A stretch of 39,248 bases of DNA from an uncultured Bacilli bacterium (GTDB lineage: Bacteria; Bacillota_I; Bacilli_A; RF39; UBA660): assembly GCA_947630585.1 (NCBI GenBank), contig CANRIE010000002.1, positions 1 through 39,248 of the forward strand, in the 5' to 3' direction. The notes below the pieces were generated by a model. That model was not told the origin of the DNA. It saw nothing but the letters and a program-made list of their open reading frames with translations, and did not search any database. Shown here piece by piece: positions 17,261 through 38,296 of this stretch. The position numbers and the translations under genes are program-made. Positions within the stretch are counted from its first letter, which is position 1; every line of letters begins with the position of its first letter.

Positions 17261-17306
17261 AAAAAGACATATAAAACCTAGTATTATTCTACCAGTTTTA
17301 TATGTC
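17261..17306 (-). terminator. Intrinsic terminator inside the upstream cassette of paralog 1
   Basis: A perfect 12-bp stem GACATATAAAAC / GTTTTATATGTC with a 17-nt loop is followed by TTTTT on the minus strand. The same stem sequence occurs at 26848-26891, and a related stem occurs at 38058-38112. Confidence 0.7.
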
Positions 17307-17339
17307 GAAATTCATCGTTTATTGTAATTTCATTTTGTA

Positions 17340-17414
17340 TTAATTTTGATACACCCCCCCCATTGTTATCAAATTGTCAACATATTTTCTTGATACATTA
17401 ATTAATTTTAACAT
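17340..17414 (-). CDS. Conserved 24-codon sORF containing a G8 tract (MLKLINVSRKYVDNLITMGGVYQN)
   Basis: A strong AAAGGTAGGTGA RBS lies 5 nt upstream of the ATG. The homopolymer at 17354-17361 encodes Gly-Gly. Paralogous sORFs with the same peptide core (YV-N/D-x-L-x-T-x-GG-x-Y) lie at 26919-26999 and 38138-38209. Confidence 0.6.
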   Translation of the reverse strand: MLKLINVSRKYVDNLITMGGVYQN

Positions 17415-17442
17415 GAGGGTCACCTACCTTTAATCTATTACT

Positions 17443-17471
17443 ATGATATCATGTTTAATTAGTTTTGACAA
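17443..17471 (-). promoter_or_regulatory. Putative promoter of the sORF cassette (paralog 1)
   Basis: On the minus strand: TTGTCA, a 17-nt spacer and TGaTATCAT (extended -10). The TGATAT(C/G)AT element is conserved in all three cassettes. Confidence 0.45.
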
Positions 17472-18528: not shown

Positions 18529-18621
18529 TGGCGGAGCGGGAGGGATTTGAACCCTCGCACCAGTTTAACCCGATCTACTCCCTTAGCAGGGGAGCCTCTT
18601 CAGCCTCTTGAGTACCACTCC
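18529..18621 (-). tRNA. tRNA-Ser (anticodon GCU), class II with long variable arm, CCA encoded
   Basis: The acceptor stem is GGAGTGG/CCGCTCC with G73 and CCA. The anticodon stem CTCCC/GGGAG carries the loop CTGCTAA. The T arm is GAGGG-TTCAAAT-CCCTC, with a long extra arm. Confidence 0.85.
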
Positions 18622-19734: not shown

Positions 19735-21099
19735 TTATAAGACTTGTTTTATTAACCGATTTAACTCAACAGCATATTCAACTGGTAGTTCTTCTTTAAA
19801 TTTATCAATGAAACCTAAGATAATTAACTCCATGGCTTTTTCGTATGGTATTCCTCTACTCATCAAATAAAACAAAGTTTCTTCATTTACTTTTGAGGTT
19901 GTTGCTTCATGATATAAATTACTACTAGAATTACGATTAATATTAACAGGATAAGTATCACTTTTACTTTTACTATCAAGAATTAAAGTATCACATTTTA
20001 AACTTGCTTCACTGTTTAATGCCGATTCTTTTATATCGATTTTTCCTCGATAAGTTGCATTTCCTCCATTTGTTGCTATACTTTTAGAAATAATTTTACT
20101 TTTCGTGTTTTTTCCTATATGAATCATTCTGCTTCCTGTATCTTGAAATTGACCGTTTCCTGCCATACTAACAGTTATACAAGTACCACTTGCATTATCA
20201 CCTTTTAATATACAAGCCGGATATTTCATAGTATTTAAACTGCCAACATTCCCATCAATCCATTCCATAATGCCATTTTCTAAAACTAATGCTCTTTTCG
20301 TTACTAAATTATTAACGTTAACTGCCCAATTCTGAATTGTTGAATAACGACATTTACTATTTTTACCAACAAATATTTCAACTACGGCTGCATGTAAACT
20401 AGAATCACTATAACTTGGAGCCGTACATCCTTCAATATAATGAAGACTACTATTATCAGAAACAATAATTAAAGTTCTTTCAAATTGCCCCATATCTTTA
20501 CTATTAATTCGGAAATAACTTTGTAAAGGTCGCTCTAAAGTAGTATTCTCAGGAACATAAATAAAGCTTCCTCCCGAAAAAACAGAAGAATTAAGTGCAG
20601 CAAACTTATTATCATTACTTGGTACTAATTTACCAAAATATTTCTTAACTAACTCTGGATACTTCTTTATTGCTTCATCAATAGATGTAAAGATAACATT
20701 CTTACTTTCAAGTTCTTTTAACATATTATGATAAATTACTTCACTTTCATATTGAATTCCCATTCCATCTAAATTAGCTTCACTCTCAATTACTCCCAGT
20801 GGTTTAAATTCATCTTGAATTTTCTTGTTAACCATTTTCCAATCATTCTTAATACTATCTTGAACACTCTTAAAATAAATTATCTTATCATAATCTATTT
20901 TATATTTAGGTCCAAAATCTGGATCTTTTAACTTTAAGAACTCTTGATAAGCCTTAACTCTATAATTTAAAAAATATTCATCCTCATTCTTATACTTAGA
21001 TATTTTTTTAATATTATCTAAGTTTAATCCCCTAACTTCTATTTTAATCACCTTATTTCTTACTATTTTTCTTTTTAATAGTTTCAATCTTGTTATCAA
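19735..21099 (-). CDS. sufB: Fe-S cluster assembly protein SufB
   Basis: Signatures present are SRMIHIGKNTKSKIISKSIATNGGNATYRGKIDI and HEATTSKVNEETLFYLMSRGIPYEKAMELIILGF. The start is uncertain: the annotated ATG overlaps the upstream gene by 47 nt. The terminator hairpin AAATTCTTAAA/TTTAAGAATTT plus a T-run lies at about 19670-19710. Confidence 0.85.
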   Translation of the reverse strand: MITRLKLLKRKIVRNKVIKIEVRGLNLDNIKKISKYKNEDEYFLNYRVKAYQEFLKLKDPDFGPKYKIDYDKIIYFKSVQDSIKNDWKMVNKKIQDEFKPLGVIESEANLDGMGIQYESEVIYHNMLKELESKNVIFTSIDEAIKKYPELVKKYFGKLVPSNDNKFAALNSSVFSGGSFIYVPENTTLERPLQSYFRINSKDMGQFERTLIIVSDNSSLHYIEGCTAPSYSDSSLHAAVVEIFVGKNSKCRYSTIQNWAVNVNNLVTKRALVLENGIMEWIDGNVGSLNTMKYPACILKGDNASGTCITVSMAGNGQFQDTGSRMIHIGKNTKSKIISKSIATNGGNATYRGKIDIKESALNSEASLKCDTLILDSKSKSDTYPVNINRNSSSNLYHEATTSKVNEETLFYLMSRGIPYEKAMELIILGFIDKFKEELPVEYAVELNRLIKQVL

Positions 21100-22153
21100 T
21101 CGTTTTATTTTTATTTACATTATCTTTTTTGTTTACATCTTTTTTAACCTTAGCAACTTCTTTCTTTAAACTTTCTTTTTCTTTTTCAAGACTACTATTA
21201 CTTTTCTTTTTAACTTCATTTTTTTCTTTATTAGTTTCTTTTTTTATTTTTTTCTTAGGTATATATTCTTCTTCTTTCCTTACTTTCTCTTTTTCTTTCT
21301 CTTTAATTTCCTTAATCTTACCTTTAACCATTGCTTCACTTATTATTAAATCAAATATAAATGTTACTATTAATAATATTATAAAAGTTAAAATAATTGT
21401 TAATATTAAATTCCATAAATTATTATCAAATATAACTAACATATCTAAAGTCTTAGTTTCATAAAAAGATATAAAATCTAAAATTGTAAATATTATTGTA
21501 AATAACAAAGCTTCTTTTAAATATATAAACTTTCTTTTTCTTTTACCATTTTTAATATCAGAAATTGGTAATATTTTCCCAGTTAAGCTTTTTAAAATAA
21601 CTTCTTCTTTTTTATTTTTATCTTTCTTATTATCTTTTTCTACTTTAACTTTATCATTTTTCTTTTTTAAAGATACTTTTTTCCTATTCTTAAACTTATT
21701 TTTAATTTTAATTATAAATAATTTAATATTACCAAATATTTTTTTAATACCTAACCCAAACTTAATTCCTAAATTTTTAATTATTGACCCTAACTTTAAA
21801 AAGAATTTCTTTATTTTAACTAAAAGACTATGTAAGAATACTTTTATTTTATTAGAAATTTTTTTATTTTCAATTTCTATTTCTTTTTTTTGAATTTTAA
21901 TTTCTTGTTTTTTCTTTTTATTTTCTTGTTTTTTTATTTCTTGTTCTTCTTTTTTCTTAGTATCCTGATTTATTTTCTTTTGAACTTTTTGATAATTGCT
22001 TTTTTTAACAGGAGTATTACTTTGATTTTTAGTAGTTTTTTTATTCTTACTATTATTAGTCTTTTTAGGAGTATTTTTAGAATTTGTTTTCTTTTTAGGA
22101 TTATTATTAGTCTTTTTTGGATTTTTATTAACCTCTTTTAAAGCATTTGCCAT
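21053..22153 (-). CDS. Extremely Lys-rich membrane protein with low-complexity tails flanking two TM helices
   Basis: The start is taken at MANALKEV after the GGGAGTGA RBS. Long K/N/E/T low-complexity stretches flank the TM segments LLFTIIFTILDFISFY and LILTIILTFIILLIVTFIFDLII. Confidence 0.6.
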   Translation of the reverse strand: MANALKEVNKNPKKTNNNPKKKTNSKNTPKKTNNSKNKKTTKNQSNTPVKKSNYQKVQKKINQDTKKKEEQEIKKQENKKKKQEIKIQKKEIEIENKKISNKIKVFLHSLLVKIKKFFLKLGSIIKNLGIKFGLGIKKIFGNIKLFIIKIKNKFKNRKKVSLKKKNDKVKVEKDNKKDKNKKEEVILKSLTGKILPISDIKNGKRKRKFIYLKEALLFTIIFTILDFISFYETKTLDMLVIFDNNLWNLILTIILTFIILLIVTFIFDLIISEAMVKGKIKEIKEKEKEKVRKEEEYIPKKKIKKETNKEKNEVKKKSNSSLEKEKESLKKEVAKVKKDVNKKDNVNKNKTIDNKIETIKKKNSKK

Positions 22154-22238
22154 ATTATCACTCCCAACACGTAATATTATATAAAAAAAAATAATAATTG
22201 ACAAGTGAAAAAAATAATGTTAAACTAATTATTGTGTT

Positions 22239-22312
22239 AGGGGATTAGTTTAATGGTAAAATAGGGGTCTCCAAAACCTTAGATGGGAGTTCGATTCTCT
22301 CATCCCCTGCCA
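22239..22312 (+). tRNA. tRNA-Trp (anticodon CCA), CCA encoded
   Basis: The acceptor stem is AGGGGAT/ATCCCCT with G73 and CCA. The anticodon loop is CTCCAAA and the T arm is GGGAG-TTCGATT-CTCTC. Confidence 0.85.
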
Positions 22313-22413: not shown

Positions 22414-22908
22414 TTAATTATTATTTATTTTTTTAACAGTTAAGGTTGCATTAACTCCACTACTTAGATTTACTCCTAATGAGACTAGTGCCGAAAGTGC
22501 CATATCAATTACATTGCCACTACTTAAATTAACAATTGTACTACCACTATAAACGGAACTGGTTCCAACTGATAAGACTCTGGAAATGACAGTTGAGGGG
22601 ATATTCGTTCCGTTATTTCTAACTGCAAGAGTTAACGTAGTTCCAACTGATGCTGAGACATTTAAAAAGTAATTTATTTCATAAACACCTGTTTGGTTTA
22701 TCGTGATACTATTGTTAGTTGTATAGCTAGTGTTCGAGCCTGGCATCGTTGTTGGAAGAGGGATTTGACTTTGGGTTAGTATTCCTAGGTTAAGAGTACT
22801 AGCTGTATTGTTGAAACGTCCTCCATAGGCTTGAAGTCCCCCAGCGGGGCCCGCAGGGCCAGTTGGCCCTTGGGGAATAACAAAATTTAGAGTATACCCT
22901 GAATTCAT
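22414..22908 (-). CDS. BclA-like protein: short collagen-like repeat plus C1q/TNF-like beta-sandwich C-terminal domain
   Basis: It has an AGGAG RBS. The N-terminus is [19 protein letters not shown] (GXY repeats), followed by a ~135-aa Ser/Thr/Asn/Val-rich domain with the BclA C-terminal pattern (GVYEINYFLNVS...LAVRNNGTNI...LSSGNVIDMAL...ATLTVKKI). Confidence 0.7.
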   Translation of the reverse strand: MNSGYTLNFVIPQGPTGPAGPAGGLQAYGGRFNNTASTLNLGILTQSQIPLPTTMPGSNTSYTTNNSITINQTGVYEINYFLNVSASVGTTLTLAVRNNGTNIPSTVISRVLSVGTSSVYSGSTIVNLSSGNVIDMALSALVSLGVNLSSGVNATLTVKKINNN

Positions 22909-24827: not shown

Positions 24828-26777
24828 CTAATTTTTTTTATTATTTTCACTTGGTAACCCAATTGTATAGGCACTTTCAGGACTCATTCCATCTCCTCCA
24901 GTTATTTTAACTTCTGGTTTTAGATAAATGGATGGCCGCGTGCCATGTTGATCCGAAGAAGGGCCGGTGCTGCCGAGACTTCCATTGTTAAAGACAAAGG
25001 ACATGTTCGAGCCACTATATGGTGTTATTAACCATATATCTGCTAAGGTATCATTATAACCTTTACCTAGCATTGCCGAAAACATTTCTCCCATTCTTGG
25101 TAATCCTACTAAACCTCGCCAAGTAGTTGTTGTTTTTTCACAACTACTTGCTGGTTCTGTTGTATTGCTTGCTCTACATATTGAATTTTTAAAACTCGTA
25201 ACCTCTCCTACTTGTCCCAAATAATAAGTCCCATCTGTTATATATTTTTGAAGTTCAGTTGTTAACCATGTATTATTCAAGTAATAACCCCAATGCCACA
25301 CGTTGCCGTTTGATACTACTGTTCCATAATTTCTTATTGAATTAGAACTGGAAAAATTTTTAGTTAAGACTGTATCACCATCTCTTACATAATCGACACT
25401 TGTTAATTTGGTTATGTTATTACCCTCATCATCTTTATCTATTCCTACTATTCTATATATTTTATTATCTACTTCGACATACTCACCACTTAATCTCGTA
25501 TTGATTAAATCTCCATTATTTCCTGATTCTTTATCATCATTTATTCGATATGGATTAGTCTCACTTCCATCTCCACCTGCTACTATTCCGATATTTGATT
25601 TTAGATTTATAGATGGACGAACACCCTTTGCTCCCGAAAAGGGATTGTTATTGCTGAGATTGCCATATTCGCTGACGTACCATACATTCGAACTAACTGG
25701 TGTTATTAACCACCAATTATATCCATTTTTCAAATATCCTCTTGAAGAAATTGTATTTTTATAACTTTGATATTGTTCATACGCATTTAATAATCCTACA
25801 TCTCCAGTTACCATTGTTGTTTCAGGTATTTTCGTAGTATAACTTGTAGTTTCTGTTGCATTCCAAGAGGCATCTTTGACTATTATATTCTCATAATTAT
25901 ATAAGGTATCCTTAAAATCTTCATTTAACCATTGATATATCCAGGAAGCTTTATAGTTATCTTTATCTTTATTTTTATATATTGTATCTTCTCCCCAAGA
26001 TATTGCTGTTATTTCATCTTGGGTTATTAATTTCATGGAACCATCTGAATTAATTGCTACTATTCTCCATAGTTTTCCGGAATACCAGACATAATTGAAA
26101 TTAACACATTCGTTATCTCCTGAAAAATAGATTATATCATCACTTGGATCACTTGGGGTTCCATTATCATCTGTTAAAGTTGGAGTACATGTATCAGTTG
26201 TATGACTTGCAATTGCTTCTATTAAAGTATCTTTTAAAGGCATAGTCTTATCTAAATTTTGATTACCTTCTACTACTACTTTAGCTTTAAACTCTTTATT
26301 CATATAAGTATTATCGGCAGTTTCCATAAGCCATACTTTAACATGATATTCACTTGTTTCTCCTACTTTTAATTTACCTTCACTTTCTATATATTTATCT
26401 TCACTTAATATTTTAGGTTCAGAATAACCTTTATTATCTTTATTTACTATATATTTTATAACTGTTTTAAATTCAGGATCAGTAGATAACTCTTCAATAT
26501 AAACATTATAATTAGCAACTAAGTTACCTGTATTTTTTACTTGGAATACTAATTCTTGTTCTAAACTCTCACCTTCTTCATCAGTCATAGGATACATATT
26601 AGATAGATTTAAAAACTGAGTTTTCGAGTCCTCAAATGTAACTTCTAATGTACCTACATTAATTACATAATTATTAGTAGATTCTTTAGTATACATTAAA
26701 TAAGCATAACTAGAGCCTAGTATTAATACTAAACTTAATGTTATTATCATTATTAATAAATTTCTTTTATTATTCAT
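24828..26777 (-). CDS. Paralog 2 of the secreted/surface protein family (TasA/camelysin-like N-terminal domain plus two WLITP...RP modules)
   Basis: 649 aa. The N-terminus GSSYAYLMYTKESTNNYVINVGTLEVTF...LNLSNMYP...VFQVKNTGNL parallels the TasA/CalY pattern. The C-terminal two thirds are collinear with paralog 1, including a 56-nt block with a single mismatch (26049-26104 versus 16436-16491). Confidence 0.8.
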   Translation of the reverse strand: MNNKRNLLIMIITLSLVLILGSSYAYLMYTKESTNNYVINVGTLEVTFEDSKTQFLNLSNMYPMTDEEGESLEQELVFQVKNTGNLVANYNVYIEELSTDPEFKTVIKYIVNKDNKGYSEPKILSEDKYIESEGKLKVGETSEYHVKVWLMETADNTYMNKEFKAKVVVEGNQNLDKTMPLKDTLIEAIASHTTDTCTPTLTDDNGTPSDPSDDIIYFSGDNECVNFNYVWYSGKLWRIVAINSDGSMKLITQDEITAISWGEDTIYKNKDKDNYKASWIYQWLNEDFKDTLYNYENIIVKDASWNATETTSYTTKIPETTMVTGDVGLLNAYEQYQSYKNTISSRGYLKNGYNWWLITPVSSNVWYVSEYGNLSNNNPFSGAKGVRPSINLKSNIGIVAGGDGSETNPYRINDDKESGNNGDLINTRLSGEYVEVDNKIYRIVGIDKDDEGNNITKLTSVDYVRDGDTVLTKNFSSSNSIRNYGTVVSNGNVWHWGYYLNNTWLTTELQKYITDGTYYLGQVGEVTSFKNSICRASNTTEPASSCEKTTTTWRGLVGLPRMGEMFSAMLGKGYNDTLADIWLITPYSGSNMSFVFNNGSLGSTGPSSDQHGTRPSIYLKPEVKITGGDGMSPESAYTIGLPSENNKKN

Positions 26778-26804
26778 ATTCTTTTACTCCTCTATTCTAT
26801 TTAT

Positions 26805-26833
26805 ATTTTAACATATTATGTCCCGTTTTACAA
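26805..26833 (-). promoter_or_regulatory. Putative gene-proximal promoter of paralog 2
   Basis: On the minus strand, TTGTAA, a 17-nt spacer and TAAAAT with TGt (extended -10), matching the position in paralog 1. Confidence 0.4.
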
Positions 26834-26842
26834 ATCAAAATT

Positions 26843-26891
26843 AAAAAGACATATAAAACCTAGTAGTATTATTCTACCAGTTTTATATGTC
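26843..26891 (-). terminator. Intrinsic terminator inside the upstream cassette of paralog 2
   Basis: The stem GACATATAAAAC / GTTTTATATGTC is identical to the 17266-17306 stem. TTTTT follows on the minus strand. Confidence 0.7.
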
Positions 26892-26918
26892 GAAAATTAT
26901 CATTAATTGTAATTTTAA

Positions 26919-26999
26919 TTAGATGATTTTTTGATACACCCCCCCCGTAGTTATCAAATTGTTAACATATTTATTTGATACAAAAATCATTTTTAACAT
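26919..26999 (-). CDS. Conserved 26-codon sORF containing a G8 tract (MLKMIFVSNKYVNNLITTGGVYQKII)
   Basis: The AAAGGTAGGTGA RBS lies 5 nt upstream of the ATG. The homopolymer at 26939-26946 encodes Gly-Gly. The peptide is collinear with the sORFs at 17340-17414 and 38138-38209. Confidence 0.6.
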   Translation of the reverse strand: MLKMIFVSNKYVNNLITTGGVYQKII

Positions 27000-27027
27000 G
27001 AGGGTCACCTACCTTTAATCTATTAAC

Positions 27028-27036
27028 ATGATATCA
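27028..27036 (-). promoter_or_regulatory. Extended -10 element TGATATCAT of the sORF cassette (paralog 2)
   Basis: This is the same TGATATCAT element, at the same distance from the sORF RBS, as in paralog 1. The -35 is poor (TTTCCA). Confidence 0.35.
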
Positions 27037-27096
27037 TATTATTTCAAAAATGGAAAGAGAAAAAATAATTAAATTGACAAATTCATGTCAACTTAA

Positions 27097-34283: not shown

Positions 34284-34388
34284 CGGGCGAACGGCATTAT
34301 TATTGTTCACGTTGTTCGAACTTACGTTCCCAGTCGTATTCCAATTAGCAACATTATTAGAGTTGTTAGAGGACGGAGACAAAAGCCA
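34284..34388 (-). repeat. DGR template repeat (TR)
   Basis: This 105 nt starts 12 nt after the RT stop and aligns without gaps to 36399-36503. The coding-strand sense reads WLLSPSSNNSNNVANWNTTGNVSSNNVNNNNAVRP, dominated by AAC/AAT codons. Confidence 0.9.
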
Positions 34389-34400
34389 CAACTCGCCAAT

Positions 34401-35507
34401 TTAATTTATCCTACCCCAAAAATATTTATTAACAATATTTTTAACTTTAATATTATTTGTATATTTAAAACTATAAAGATAAGTATTAATACTTGAAAAA
34501 CATTTTTCAAAACTAATATAACCTTTATTATATAAATACTTAACTTCTTTAACTCTTCTTTTTATTTTCTTTAAAGTATCTTTTTTTATTTTTATAATTG
34601 TTTTATTATTTTTAATAATAAAACGATATCCTAAAAAACAAAATCCTTCTTTACTACTTACTATTTTTGTTTTCTTTTTATTTATTTCTAATTTATAATC
34701 ATTATTTAATATCTTTTCAATTTTATTTAAACATTCTTCTAAATATTTCTTATTAGGATGCATGATTATAAGGTCATCCATGTACACTATTGTGTATTTA
34801 AGATGTAAATCATGAACAATATAATGAATTAATCTTGATAAATAAAATATTGATAGAAATTGACTAGTCATAGCTCCAAGTCCTAACCCTTTACCATCTT
34901 TATATCTTGGTAAATCATTTAATTTATCTTTATCATAAGGTCTTTTCTTAATCATTTCAACAATCCTAGAATCAATATCAGAATTTATATAACTACTATT
35001 AGTACTATCAATTATTCTACTAATTAATGTATATTCATCATTATCTAATTTGCATTTAATCAAACTCTTTAATACATCATGGTCTATATTATAAAAATAC
35101 TTTTTAATATCAATTTTTAATATATAAAAATTACCATATTTCTTACATTTTTCTAAATACTTTTTAACTAACTTAATTCCATAATCTACACCATATCCAC
35201 TTCTAGTTGCAACTATTCTATTATCTAAATATTTATCTAATTTTGGAATTAAAACATATCTTGCTAAATAATGATTAATAACTTTATCTTTAATTCTTAA
35301 AGACATTACTATTCTATACTTAGGTTCTCTAATTATAAATATATTATATTTACTAGGATAATAACTCATATTAGTAAGTTCATTATAGATATTTATGATA
35401 TTTTGCATTTTATTTCTTTCAAATACATAAACTTTTTTCTTATTCTTAGTATTCTTTCTAATTTCTAAATCATAAATATCTATTAAATCTTTAATATTAA
35501 CTTTCAT
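34401..35507 (-). CDS. DGR-type reverse transcriptase
   Basis: 368 aa with the catalytic motif VYMDDLIIMH and GLGAMTSQFLS (the [I/L]GxxxSQ signature characteristic of DGR RTs). No maturase/endonuclease domain or intron RNA is present. It overlaps the Avd-like gene by 11 nt, and TR lies immediately downstream. Confidence 0.9.
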   Translation of the reverse strand: MKVNIKDLIDIYDLEIRKNTKNKKKVYVFERNKMQNIINIYNELTNMSYYPSKYNIFIIREPKYRIVMSLRIKDKVINHYLARYVLIPKLDKYLDNRIVATRSGYGVDYGIKLVKKYLEKCKKYGNFYILKIDIKKYFYNIDHDVLKSLIKCKLDNDEYTLISRIIDSTNSSYINSDIDSRIVEMIKKRPYDKDKLNDLPRYKDGKGLGLGAMTSQFLSIFYLSRLIHYIVHDLHLKYTIVYMDDLIIMHPNKKYLEECLNKIEKILNNDYKLEINKKKTKIVSSKEGFCFLGYRFIIKNNKTIIKIKKDTLKKIKRRVKEVKYLYNKGYISFEKCFSSINTYLYSFKYTNNIKVKNIVNKYFWGRIN

Positions 35508-35835
35508 CTTGAATCCATTTAAACAACATCTTATTAATACTAAGTAATCTATTACTTAATTTAATAGATTGTTTTTCACTTATTATCCTCTTCTTAAAAC
35601 TTTGCTCTATATAAAAGTCAATTAAATTAACTTTCATAATAGTTTTAATTTGAATATCTTTTCTTTTATCTATATTAGTATAATTAGCAGTATAAACTAG
35701 TTCTAATAATTCATAACTATCATTAACTAATCTATTTCTAAGTTCAAAGTATTTTCTAGGATAATTAATTAAATAATCATCAAGTATCATAATAAATTCT
35801 TTAATATATTTAGCAATAACAAACTTATCATTCAT
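35497..35835 (-). CDS. avd: Avd-like (accessory variability determinant) four-helix-bundle protein
   Basis: 112 aa, basic and predicted all-helical. The YPRKYFELRNRL and EKQSIKLSNRLLSINKMLFKWI pattern resembles the Avd / 23S-rRNA-IVS protein family. It is translationally coupled to the RT. Confidence 0.75.
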   Translation of the reverse strand: MNDKFVIAKYIKEFIMILDDYLINYPRKYFELRNRLVNDSYELLELVYTANYTNIDKRKDIQIKTIMKVNLIDFYIEQSFKKRIISEKQSIKLSNRLLSINKMLFKWIQDES

Positions 35836-36187
35836 TTACAATACTAGATATAGTTTCTAGTATTCTATCTAATTTTTCAGGACTTACTTTTTTAACCTTT
35901 TCAACTAAATCTTTATAATTAGTATCTTTCTCATATTTTTCTTTTCCTAATCTTACAAATTTTAAATATTTATTTAAGTTCTTAAAGTTATTATTGTTAT
36001 CTTCTCCTATAACTTCATAACTAATCTTATTTTCTTCTAATTTATTTATTACTTTATTAAGTGCTGATTTAGGAAACCCTACTTTATTATTTTTAATTTG
36101 ATAGTTAAAAAGATAATAAAGAATATAACAATCATCATCATAAGTACTATAAAAAGTACCACTTCTTCTTATCTTGATAACATTCAT
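35828..36187 (-). CDS. Small MutS-domain-I-like protein (MSL-type DGR accessory candidate)
   Basis: 119 aa. RRSGTFYSTYDDDCYILYYLFNYQI...KVGFPKSALNKVINKLEENKISYEVI parallels the MutS mismatch-binding domain core (GDFYE-F--DA...G-P...L...KL...GY-V-I). It overlaps the avd start by 8 nt. Confidence 0.5.
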   Translation of the reverse strand: MNVIKIRRSGTFYSTYDDDCYILYYLFNYQIKNNKVGFPKSALNKVINKLEENKISYEVIGEDNNNNFKNLNKYLKFVRLGKEKYEKDTNYKDLVEKVKKVSPEKLDRILETISSIVNE

Positions 36188-36287
36188 ATAACTATAAAAC
36201 TATTCCTTTCTTTTATTAATTTATATAGTTAAACTTTCAATCAAAACCATTTCTACTAATGGTTAAACCCCTTGATATATAAGGCGG

Positions 36288-36315
36288 TTTCCGGACGTCT
36301 TTGCCGTCCAGGAAA
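36288..36315 (-). other. GC-rich hairpin 3 nt downstream of the DGR target stop codon
   Basis: Stem TTTCCGGACG / CGTCC(A)GGAAA has one bulged A and a 7-nt loop, and is unusually GC-rich for this genome. No T-run follows. Confidence 0.5.
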
Positions 36316-36317
36316 CT

Positions 36318-37958
36318 CTATGCTATTTCAGGGTAATATGGAGTATTCAAACTTCCATCTCCATCTGTTATTTTTATATCGGATATTAGATTAACGGACG
36401 GGCGAACGGCAATATTAGAGCTCACGTTGAGCGAACTTACGCTCTCAGTCGTATCCCAATTAGCAACATCAGTAGAGTCGTGAGAGGACGGAGACAAAAG
36501 CCATCCATAGTTACTTGGCATACTATTCATCCAACTTGCTGATTTTATACTACTAAAATCTTTTAATTGCTTATCCCAATTATCATTTTCACTGCTTACT
36601 GAAAAGCCATAATCGCTTGGATACATTAAGGCAATTTTTCCTTCCCAGGTTGCTTGATTTTCTTTCCACACTTTACATCCATTTTCACTTTCAGATTTTC
36701 CAGTATTTTCAACGCAACTTGCAACATCTCTTTCATTCGCATAGGCTTCTTTTGGATTATCAATTATTCCTGTATAACTTTCAGGATCATAAGTTACTGT
36801 TCCCAAATAATATTTGGTGTCTTTTATCATATCTTTGGCATTTTTACTTAAGTAACTCATGTACCCATCACTTGGTTGTTTTGTATATTTATCAATTCCA
36901 GCATTTAACCAATATTGGAGTCCTGCTGTTGCCCAGTCATTATTGTATGTTCCACTTGTTTTTTTATTCCAATAAGCATAGTTCCCACTTGTATATTGAA
37001 TATTATATTCAGTTCCACTTGCAGAAAAAGTTGCAGGGAACATATCTCTTGTTAAAACTTTATTATTAACTATTTTTAAGTGTTCTTCTCCACTTTCATC
37101 TTTGAATACTCCGATTATTCTCCATATTTCACAATTAGAACTTGCAGTTTCATAAGTTGTATTATCACTACAATTAAAATAAATATAATTCTTTATTCCA
37201 TCATTTCCAGAATAACGATATTCTCTTACCTCATCATCTTTTGAAGTTGTTGGAGTATTATCAGATTTTACTCCAATTACTCCTCCTGCTTGGCCTATAG
37301 TATCTTTAACAACATCAGTTCCAATTTCACTTTTAATTTCTTTCTCATCAAAGTCACCATTTACGGATACTTTGATACTTGCAAAAACATTATCATTCCA
37401 TGTTTCCATATCATAATCAGCAAGACTTGTATTTCCTATATTAGTCTTAGGGGATATCCACATATATAATTTATACGTTATTTCTACATTATCTGTATTT
37501 GCATCTATTGTATTTATCCATATTGCTTTTCCATCTTTTATATTACTATAACTTGCATTATCTAATACTGTTTTATCAACTCCATCTTTGGTTTCTACTA
37601 ACCTAAACATTAATAAGTTATCTTTTATTCTTTCTGTTCTTTCTGTATTTTCATCTCCTGTTGGTTCTTCTCCCCAATTTAAAACTATTTCATACCAAAT
37701 TGGTTTTGAATATTTATTCCTTCCTTCGATTGTAAACTCGAAATAATCATCATCACCTGGTTCAGCTTTAGGTAAAGCATTTGTAATTGATAGTTCATTA
37801 GATTCCGTATATTTCATGAATACATCTCCGCTTATCAAAACTTGATTTTGGAGCGTATTTGAATATGTCCATATTGCAAATGTTACTCCGAATATTAGAA
37901 CTAAACAAATCGCTGCTATAACTCCAACTATAACTCCCTTTTTACGTTTATTTTCCAT
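36318..37958 (-). CDS. Paralog 3 of the secreted/surface protein family; DGR target (variable protein)
   Basis: 546 aa with a GGAGGAAATAG RBS. The signal-like N-terminus and N-terminal domain are closely similar to paralog 1 (NQVLISGDVFMKYTESN, YFEFTIEGRNKYSK, ASIKVSVNGDFDEK). The C-terminal module GWLLSPSSHDSTDVANWDTTESVSSLNVSSNIAVRPSVNL carries the VR. Confidence 0.85.
   Translation of the reverse strand: MENKRKKGVIVGVIAAICLVLIFGVTFAIWTYSNTLQNQVLISGDVFMKYTESNELSITNALPKAEPGDDDYFEFTIEGRNKYSKPIWYEIVLNWGEEPTGDENTERTERIKDNLLMFRLVETKDGVDKTVLDNASYSNIKDGKAIWINTIDANTDNVEITYKLYMWISPKTNIGNTSLADYDMETWNDNVFASIKVSVNGDFDEKEIKSEIGTDVVKDTIGQAGGVIGVKSDNTPTTSKDDEVREYRYSGNDGIKNYIYFNCSDNTTYETASSNCEIWRIIGVFKDESGEEHLKIVNNKVLTRDMFPATFSASGTEYNIQYTSGNYAYWNKKTSGTYNNDWATAGLQYWLNAGIDKYTKQPSDGYMSYLSKNAKDMIKDTKYYLGTVTYDPESYTGIIDNPKEAYANERDVASCVENTGKSESENGCKVWKENQATWEGKIALMYPSDYGFSVSSENDNWDKQLKDFSSIKSASWMNSMPSNYGWLLSPSSHDSTDVANWDTTESVSSLNVSSNIAVRPSVNLISDIKITDGDGSLNTPYYPEIA
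36399..36503 (-). repeat. DGR variable repeat (VR)
   Basis: The 105 nt show 13 mismatches to TR. Twelve are at positions that are A in the TR coding strand (30 A in total). The VR ends 26 codons before the stop. The A-free GC-rich 3' end GCCGTTCGCCCG is identical to TR. Confidence 0.9.
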
Positions 37959-38005
37959 TTCTATTTCCTCCTTCTGGGCTTACGCCCCTCTACTATTACA
38001 TTTTC

Positions 38006-38034: not shown

Positions 38035-38057
38035 GTCTTTTTTTAAATCCTCATGTG

Positions 38058-38112
38058 AAAAAAGACATATTTAAAATAAGTATTATCAATACCATATTTT
38101 ATATGTCTTTTT
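38058..38112 (-). terminator. Intrinsic terminator inside the upstream cassette of paralog 3
   Basis: Stem AAAAAGACATAT / ATATGTCTTTTT has additional inner pairing AAAATA/TATTTT, and a T-run follows on the minus strand. It shares the GACATAT core with the other two cassettes. Confidence 0.65.
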
Positions 38113-38137
38113 GTATCTTTTACTATACTTTGAATAA

Positions 38138-38209
38138 CTAAAAGTGGTAGCCCCCCCCCAATGTCGACAAGTAGTTAACATACATATTTATCATATTTAC
38201 TATATTCAT
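38138..38209 (-). CDS. Conserved 23-codon sORF containing a G9 tract (MNIVNMINMYVNYLSTLGGGYHF)
   Basis: The AAAGGAAGTG RBS lies 6 nt upstream of the ATG. The homopolymer at 38151-38159 encodes Gly-Gly-Gly. The nucleotide sequence has diverged from the other two cassettes, but the peptide core YVN-L-T-GG-Y and the reading frame are kept. Confidence 0.55.
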   Translation of the reverse strand: MNIVNMINMYVNYLSTLGGGYHF

Positions 38210-38244
38210 AAACTACACTTCCTTTATTCTTAAAATACAACTTA

Positions 38245-38253
38245 ATCATATCA
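38245..38253 (-). promoter_or_regulatory. Extended -10 element TGATATGAT of the sORF cassette (paralog 3)
   Basis: It occupies the same position relative to the sORF RBS as TGATATCAT in the other two cassettes. Confidence 0.35.
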
Positions 38254-38296
38254 TATAATTTGAATTAAGGGAAGAGTATATTTTTCTAATTAGACA

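Follow-up and report, generated by a model that had tools for sequence, protein, structure and literature searches.

A predicted phase-variable attenuator built on a poly-G leader open reading frame precedes DUF6273-family genes in uncultured gut Bacilli

Contig CANRIE010000002.1 of an uncultured Bacilli bacterium (assembly GCA_947630585.1), whose 39,248 nucleotides (nt) are referred to here as the window, carries a short intergenic cassette between the lysS gene and a large open reading frame (ORF) of 649 amino acids (aa). The cassette combines a promoter, a short ORF (sORF) containing a run of eight G (G8), an intrinsic terminator and a second promoter-like element, and it recurs twice more in the window and in related genomes. 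We consider it probable, at roughly 0.7, that this cassette is a phase-variable, translation-dependent transcription attenuator of the leader-ORF type in which a poly-G tract sets the state. According to this proposal, a constitutive extended -10 promoter (P1) would start a leader transcript of ~180 nt, on which a very strong Shine-Dalgarno (SD) sequence would load a ribosome onto the short leader ORF holding eight or nine G (G8/G9). In two of the three frames the ribosome would reach an early stop, the hairpin and T run would form and transcription would end, giving an OFF or low state. The third frame has no stop before the hairpin, and a ribosome translating it close behind RNA polymerase would occupy the 5' arm and block the terminator; transcription would then continue into the gene for the secreted DUF6273-family protein (ON or high state). 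Slipped-strand gain or loss of one G at replication, presumed to occur at a high rate within populations, would make the state heritable and reversible, and several cassettes in one genome would each switch independently.

All genes around the cassette before the 649-aa ORF (copy 2) lie on the minus strand, and its coordinates are read in that direction (Table 1). The original prediction had listed the elements of this cassette in the intergenic span between the lysS stop codon (27097) and the ATG of the 649-aa ORF (26777), and all of them were found in place on the minus strand, which confirms the observation. P1 carries TATGATATCAT at 27038-27028 as its extended -10 element. The sORF as assembled encodes MLKMIFVSNKYVNNLITTGGVYQKII, and its stop lies 28 nt upstream of the hairpin 5' arm. 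With one additional G, the sORF runs to 43 codons and ends in CGA CAT ATA AAA CTG GTA GAA TAA, the TAA (26871-26869) lying within the hairpin loop. The hairpin, with stem arms GACATATAAAAC/GTTTTATATGTC, has a predicted energy of -19.9 kcal/mol (z -7.9), and the second promoter-like element (P2) is followed by an SD sequence and the ATG of the large gene.

Table 1 Features of the three cassettes, the genes downstream of them and the diversity-generating retroelement (DGR) in the window. TR, template repeat; VR, variable repeat.
Feature	Position	Strand	Details
Copy 2 cassette	26778-27056	minus	Order: extended -10 promoter, SD, sORF with G8, hairpin + T5, second promoter
Copy 2 P1 promoter	27028..27056	minus	TTTCCA-17-TATCAT, TG upstream; by promoter scan
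Copy 2 sORF SD	27005..27016	minus	Long, AAAGGTAGGTGA
Copy 2 C-rich spacer + AUG	26997..27004	minus	CCCTCATG; complementary to G tract and surrounding bases
Copy 2 leader sORF as assembled	26919..26999	minus	G8, short frame, 26 codons + TAA
Copy 2 G8 homopolymer	26939..26946	minus	Proposed slippage site; length polymorphism at homologous locus
Copy 2 sORF extension	26869..26938	minus	Read only with G9 (or G6, G12); open across 5' arm
Copy 2 intrinsic terminator	26843..26891	minus	Hairpin 26891-26848 + T5 26847-26843; by terminator scan
Copy 2 P2, promoter-like	26805..26833	minus	TTGTAA-17-(TG)TAAAAT, between terminator and main gene
Copy 1 cassette	17261..17471	minus	Same layout as copy 2
Copy 1 P2	17223..17251	minus	TTGTAT-17-(TG)TAAAAT
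Copy 3 cassette	38055..38255	minus	Diverged; precedes paralog 3
Copy 3 P2	38006..38034	minus	TTGCTA-17-TATAAT
Paralog 1, 656 aa	15227..17197	minus	
Paralog 2, 649 aa	24828..26777	minus	N-terminal hydrophobic leader, weak Peptidase_M73-like N-terminal match, DUF6273
Paralog 3, 546 aa	36318..37958	minus	DGR target; variable repeat ~36399-36503
DGR reverse transcriptase	34401..35507	minus	RVT_1, E 8e-20
Avd-like protein	35497..35835	minus	bAvd, E 4.4e-7, below Pfam's cut-off
DGR accessory ORF, 119 aa	35828..36187	minus	
TR	~34284-34388	minus	By TR/VR comparison
VR	~36399-36503	minus	3' end of paralog 3

The original prediction had regarded this cassette as the second of two copies. It is indeed a second copy, but the total of two did not stand, since a third, diverged copy with a tract of nine G (G9) precedes paralog 3. 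Copy 1 consists of P1 (17471-17443), an sORF (17414-17340) with G8 at 17361-17354 and a hairpin (17306-17266) followed by T5, and with G9 its frame stops in the loop (17286-17284). Copy 3 has an extended -10 element TATGATATGAT at 38255-38245, an sORF of 23 codons plus stop (38209-38138) with G9 at 38159-38151, and a hairpin at ~38108-38063 followed by a T run; with G8 the frame stops in the loop, and with G10 the whole hairpin is read through. Runs of at least seven G occur in the window only at the three cassettes, and the G-run pattern gave seven matches, all within the three tracts, against 0.34 expected by chance. A profile search with nhmmer revealed no further copies in the window or at other paralog loci.

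Pairwise alignment bore out the claim that the cassette is conserved as a unit, as copies 1 and 2 are 84% identical over 262 aligned nt, compared with 56% upstream of the cassette; within the coding sequence, identity is 48% over the initial 600 nt and 65% thereafter. The further idea that the cassette is exchanged as a unit by gene conversion fared less well. The cassettes of copies 1 and 2 (W1 and W2) are 86% identical, and each is 79-82% identical to the cassette before its closest homologue in another assembly; this excess similarity is small, and selection on functional elements could also give it.

Searching species-representative genomes with the three paralogs as queries yielded 17 loci, all in four rabbit-gut metagenome-assembled genomes (MAGs) labelled "uncultured Bacilli bacterium", and in 7 of the 17 a G8/G9 tract lies 130-380 nt upstream of the match, each inside a cassette of the same design. 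Moreover, a profile built from the predicted long-frame peptides retrieved 11 proteins called as genes of 38-68 aa in public data, so that long-frame sORFs are present there, and the contigs of these proteins gave more cassettes. The window contributes three cassettes and the four rabbit-gut MAGs and ENA assemblies the others, which gives a set of 15 distinct cassettes in ~7 sequence lineages with pairwise identities of 52-91%. A 19-base cassette pattern gave three chance matches only, in GC-rich contigs, when run against JGI metagenome contigs, and no match in IMG/VR viral contigs.

The order of P1, SD, sORF with G tract, hairpin with T run and gene is kept in all 15 cassettes. P1 matches TRTGnTAnnnT 37-46 nt upstream of the sORF ATG in 12 of them and has CATG or CGTG near-variants in the other 3, often together with a TTGAT-type -35 element. 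A strong and unusually long SD sequence of the form (A)GAAAGGAGTGA stands before every sORF ATG (15/15), and the G8/G9 tract follows 50-59 nt past the ATG (92 nt in one cassette). The hairpin starts 41-50 nt downstream of the tract, and hairpin and T run end 81-94 nt after it. Each hairpin is followed by at least four T, and hairpin energies range from -13 to -23 kcal/mol, with z-scores of -3.6 to -9.0 relative to shuffled versions of the same hairpin.

MAFFT/RNAalifold analysis of the raw hairpins misaligned their bulged stems and gave a weak consensus, and was replaced by a hand-anchored alignment of the base of the stem. In this alignment, 93% of the cells of the ten basal stem pairs can pair, compensatory changes occur in five of the ten pairs, and none of 500 shuffles reached as high a stem covariation score. 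Because a hand-anchored alignment is biased to pairing by construction, the weight lies on the compensatory pair types and on slid controls, in which pairing dropped to 27-67%. These data indicate that the predicted hairpins are real and that their stems covary between lineages.

We translated each cassette with one G less in the tract, as assembled, and with one G more. Across all 15 cassettes, a single frame gets as far as the hairpin (in window copy 3, two frames do): the gap between its stop and the arm is 0 or less, and the stop lies at the hairpin foot, in the 5' arm or, as a TAA, in the loop. The remaining frames stop 7-29 nt past the tract, which is 17-41 nt before the 5' arm. The claim that a +1 G change takes the copy 2 frame into the terminator was upheld, with the same geometry throughout the set. 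Short-frame sORFs as assembled have 22-35 codons. Among seven lineage representatives, the stretch from tract to hairpin contains no stop in 88 codons of the long frame, compared with 29 in 218 codons (13%) of the other frames. By chance, a lineage would have at least one open frame with a probability of ~0.5-0.65, and the product of these values is 0.013, which is a guide and not a strict probability because the lineages share ancestry.

Differences between cassettes are spread evenly over the codon positions of the sORF (0.31/0.35/0.33 before the tract and 0.38/0.38/0.37 after it), and therefore its amino acids drift and openness alone is kept. A functional peptide from the sORF was rejected on the basis of these equal substitution rates at the three codon positions. 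Flat codon positions would be the mark of a leader ORF whose translation, rather than its product, matters.

Both G8 and G9 are common among the cassettes. The same locus is represented in a MAG (L016) and in an independent ENA assembly (L027), and over 3,401 nt the two sequences differ by one mismatch and one gap; the sole gap is the difference between G8 and G9, which places L016 in the short frame and L027 in the long frame. Closest homologues differ likewise, with G8 in W2 versus G9 in L029, and G8 in L006 and L007 versus G9 in L037. Single genomes are mixed as well: the CANRHS genome has a short-frame cassette (L001) next to long-frame ones (L028 and L035), and the CANRDV genome has three in the short frame (L014, L015 and L016) and one in the long frame (L030). 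In L030 it is G8 that gives the long frame, so the tract length corresponding to the long frame differs among cassettes. In three independent samples (L032-L034), the tract before a paralog-1-like gene has decayed to GGGGTGGGTGGGTG with the long frame intact, which looks like a naturally locked-ON allele; the upstream extension made by the gene caller gives this sORF 68 aa.

The leader has a further conserved property. The C/U-rich spacer and the sORF AUG are together complementary to the (C)AUG-G-tract region, with duplex energies of -8 to -14 kcal/mol in 12 of the 15 cassettes, and 0 of 24 ordinary start regions in the window pair as well with the tract. The 10 nt upstream of the sORF AUG contain 3-4 C, compared with a mean of 0.375 in the 24 ordinary genes (the window has 26.5% GC). 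In copy 2 the duplex joins 26997-27004 with 26939-26950 at -10.4 kcal/mol, in copy 1 the paired sites are 17412-17419 and 17354-17365, and when the full leader is folded the first half of the sORF lies between the two strands of this helix. We suggest, as an inference only, that the helix closes the start site once the tract is transcribed, in which case only a ribosome that loaded early, and would thus be near the polymerase, could translate the sORF; alternatively, it may act as a pause hairpin.

Another pairing, between ATATGT in the sORF and ACATAT in the 5' arm of the terminator, had been put forward in the original prediction as a weak alternative structure and was not borne out. Seven of the 15 cassettes keep one partner without the other: L001, L006, L007, L014 and L035 retain ATATGT with a 5' arm lacking ACATAT, and two more are mixed. 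The duplex energies are no better than those of shuffled sequences (z -2.6 to +1.2, centred near 0). This pairing was rejected for lack of covariation and for its shuffle-level energies.

Several points weigh against attenuation through the leader ORF. Blocking of a terminator in this way needs a ribosome near RNA polymerase, and such coupling is weak in Bacillus subtilis. A near-consensus P2, for example TTGAAA-17-TATAAT or TTGCTA-17-TATAAT, lies between terminator and gene in 9 of the 15 cassettes, the three window copies among them, and therefore the gene need not depend on read-through in these nine. The contigs that show G8 in one assembly and G9 in another have low coverage (~4x), six cassettes were found through called long-frame sORFs, which biases the ON/OFF ratio in that subset, and shared descent of the lineages makes the frame statistics less than fully independent.

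In five of the 15 cassettes (L006, L007, L015, L016/L027 and L035/L036) only 24-30 nt, which equals SD plus spacer, lie between hairpin and ATG, and with the cassette at a contig end (L037) included the distance is about 20-30 nt. Because there is no room for P2 in these, read-through would be the sole transcription route. In the three window copies, where P2 follows the terminator, the switch would be modulatory and at most additive; P1 read-through would probably come on top of a basal output from P2, and the effect would not be all-or-none. Our confidence that copy 2 itself controls its downstream gene is lower than that in the cassette family overall. A small GC-rich hairpin was also seen just 5' of the main-gene SD in L001, L014, L028 and L030 and at 37966-37990 of the window, for example GGGGCGTAAGCCC, GGGGCATATCCC and GAGACGATATCTC; all of these cassettes have P2, and the small hairpin may serve as a 5' stabiliser of the P2 transcript.

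The G run could instead act at the RNA level, through transcriptional slippage or -1 frameshifting on G GGG GGG, which would result in a constant, leaky read-through. Long homopolymers can promote both transcriptional slippage and ribosomal frameshifting, and G8 is the commonest assembled length (9/15). Differences between G8 and G9 in the DNA of the same or closest homologous loci argue against this explanation, as does the long frame of L030, which differs from that of other cassettes at equal tract length. Furthermore, no frameshift-stimulating structure was found 5-9 nt past the run, the conserved hairpin being 41-50 nt downstream. We therefore regard constant read-through as unlikely, although slippage on the RNA could coexist with slippage on the DNA. 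It is also conceivable that the sORF is an independent phase-variable small-protein gene, with a long form of 43-46 aa and its own terminator, and that the large gene is transcribed from P2 only. The near-consensus P2 in nine cassettes and the long-form sORFs called as genes in public assemblies would fit such a gene. However, the sORF shows no third-position excess and no sign of selection on the peptide, five cassettes lack space for P2, the cassette was found only before one family of secreted proteins, and a long-frame stop inside the hairpin would be odd for a free-standing gene; this explanation is accordingly rather improbable.

The terminated leader, a transcript with its own promoter and terminator, might alternatively be a regulatory RNA which acts elsewhere through the start-region/G-tract helix or the G run, the ORF being incidental. 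The complementarity in 12 of the 15 cassettes is in line with such a role, but a strong SD and the frame geometry are found in every cassette, the cassette always lies directly 5' of one gene family, and no candidate target was identified. In addition, Rfam 15 detected nothing in the window at gathering score except two tRNAs, and 26760-27070 had no match even at E up to 1. A regulatory RNA thus seems very improbable. The remaining explanation, that the poly-G tract varies promoter or operator spacing, takes its appeal from TTGATA and TATCAA, which flank the tract in copies 1 and 2 (as TTGATA-N15-TATCAA), and from a TTGACA upstream in copy 1. These hexamers are not conserved in other lineages, and the promoter-spacer role was rejected on this ground. 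Moreover, ~90-100 nt separate the P1 -10 element from the tract downstream of it, P2 follows the tract at a distance of >100 nt, and a transcript started at the tract would still meet the terminator, which leaves hardly any probability for a spacing effect. As judged from sequence, the best explanation of the cassette is a leader-ORF attenuator made phase-variable by a poly-G tract and present as a multi-copy module.

The closest parallel is found at the pil1 and pil3 loci of Streptococcus gallolyticus (Danne et al. 2014, PLoS Pathog, PMC3894217). There, the leader ORF is made of GCAGA repeats (13-22 units). In low-expressing cells it ends 39 nt upstream of a hairpin of -18.7 kcal/mol, and when a change in the repeats shifts the frame, the stop falls within or beyond the stem-loop and transcription is high (PMC3894217). 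The two hairpins have energies of -18.7 and -28 kcal/mol, and isolates with a leader stop at least 28 nt before the hairpin are low expressers (PMC3894217). Mutation of the start codon abolishes the effect, deletion of the terminator locks expression ON, and stop-codon mutants agree with this (PMC3894217).

The cassette shares with pil1/pil3 the order of promoter, SD and ATG of a leader ORF with a simple repeat, terminator and gene for a surface structure. The gap left by the short frame is comparable, 39 or at least 28 nt there and 17-41 nt here, where the long frame leaves 0 nt or less, and in both cases a repeat change lengthens the leader ORF to a stop within or beyond the hairpin. Several loci per genome and a similar hairpin strength (-13 to -23 kcal/mol here) are further common points. 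In contrast, the repeat of the cassette is a G8/G9 homopolymer without GCAGA units, and its peptide is not repeat-encoded. The downstream genes also differ: they encode secreted DUF6273/C-type-lectin-like proteins here, one of them a DGR target, and sortase pili in S. gallolyticus. A second promoter after the terminator (9/15 cassettes) sets the cassette apart, as does the conserved start region complementary to the G tract, which was not reported for pil1. The function of the cassette is predicted from sequence, whereas that of pil1/pil3 is experimental. No sequence similarity exists between the two systems, and the host here is an uncultured low-GC gut member of the Bacilli; we interpret the relation as one of mechanism, not descent.

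Other attenuators and other poly-G switches each share part of this design. In Escherichia coli pyrBI, the leader ORF runs through an intrinsic terminator, a close ribosome prevents formation of the hairpin and no antiterminator is needed. The cassette is proposed to use the same physical block by a ribosome behind RNA polymerase, but coupling in pyrBI is tuned by pausing sensitive to uridine triphosphate, whereas here it would be decided by the genotype of the tract length. With trp-type attenuation, the cassette has in common that translation of a leader peptide would decide terminator formation. Trp-type leaders differ in their regulatory codons and mutually exclusive antiterminator and terminator hairpins; in the cassettes examined, we found neither a conserved pairing that competes with the 5' arm nor a run of regulatory codons in the sORF. 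The poly-G/C tracts of Campylobacter and Neisseria and the poly-G tracts of Treponema tpr genes resemble the cassette in being G/C homopolymer switches of 8-9 nt at several loci of surface-protein genes. Unlike these classical cases, the tract here lies outside both the structural gene and any promoter spacer; it belongs to a leader ORF of its own, which seems to serve solely to place a ribosome with respect to the terminator.

The proteins that the cassettes would control have an N-terminal hydrophobic leader, which resembles a signal peptide by eye, and contain DUF6273. According to published work, this domain is C-type-lectin-like and serves as a scaffold for the variable regions of DGRs (PMC10743442). 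The claim that paralogs 1 and 3 share a type of N-terminal domain was substantiated. Paralog 2 does differ from them at the N-terminus, as had been stated, but its description as TasA-like is less secure, the relevant match being to Peptidase_M73 (camelysin) with an E value of 3.9e-5 and 24 bits at a cut-off of 22.5. A PDB sequence search with paralog 2 gave nothing useful, and exact-protein look-up of paralog 2 and its closest homologues P0002 and P0003 was unsuccessful.

A complete DGR is present at 34284-37958 on the minus strand, co-oriented with and downstream of cassette copy 3, and 12 of the 13 internal mismatches between TR and VR fall at TR adenines. As all its parts are co-oriented downstream, the switch of copy 3 might gate expression of the DGR too. 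Elsewhere in the window, a 164-aa protein with a BclA C-terminal domain (22414..22908, minus strand) lies ahead of a co-oriented 383-aa ORF (21053..22204), which has internal direct repeats at 21602-21952 and 22035-22130; the two may be another surface or exosporium-like pair. Two tRNA genes lie at 18532-18621 (minus) and 22239-22309 (plus).

The cassette does not accompany every member of the protein family. The homologues P0049 and P0081 (~50% identity) lie directly behind a glucosaminidase gene without a cassette, which is therefore not universal in the protein family. More distant members with ~50% identity (L021-L026) lie 37 nt behind a large glucosaminidase/SH3 gene and have no cassette. 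It appears confined to one lineage and not obligatory for these proteins, and the switch would have been acquired by, or kept in, only part of the family. In L029, a radical-SAM gene precedes the closest homologue of paralog 2 and its cassette, while the window counterpart follows lysS; the cassette-plus-gene unit therefore stands in differing neighbourhoods of related genomes. A more far-reaching and tentative possibility, which we doubt as a whole, is that the cassette serves as a portable plug-in switch which, perhaps through duplication or gene conversion, has spread in a single lineage to stand before lectin-like secreted proteins with varied N-termini, with combinatorial ON/OFF expression as the outcome. 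The same possibility would include two features that reach further than pil1: pairing of the start region with the G tract as a kinetic gate or pause element, and phase variation at copy 3, which precedes the co-oriented target, Avd and reverse transcriptase genes, that could also gate targeted hypermutation.

To our knowledge, experimental proof that genes can be switched by a phase-variable leader ORF acting on a terminator comes from one species, S. gallolyticus, and we found no report of a homopolymer version in the searchable literature. That the same logic seems to have been built independently suggests a recurrent and under-recognised design. Because the tract sits in an unannotated ORF of 22-35 codons, genome-wide screens limited to repeats in annotated genes or promoter spacers would miss such a switch. 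In the gut Bacilli studied here, one gene family would be subject to two layers of variation, as the DGR alters the sequence of paralog 3 and the poly-G tracts would vary expression, which suggests that these secreted proteins are under strong pressure to diversify in the gut.

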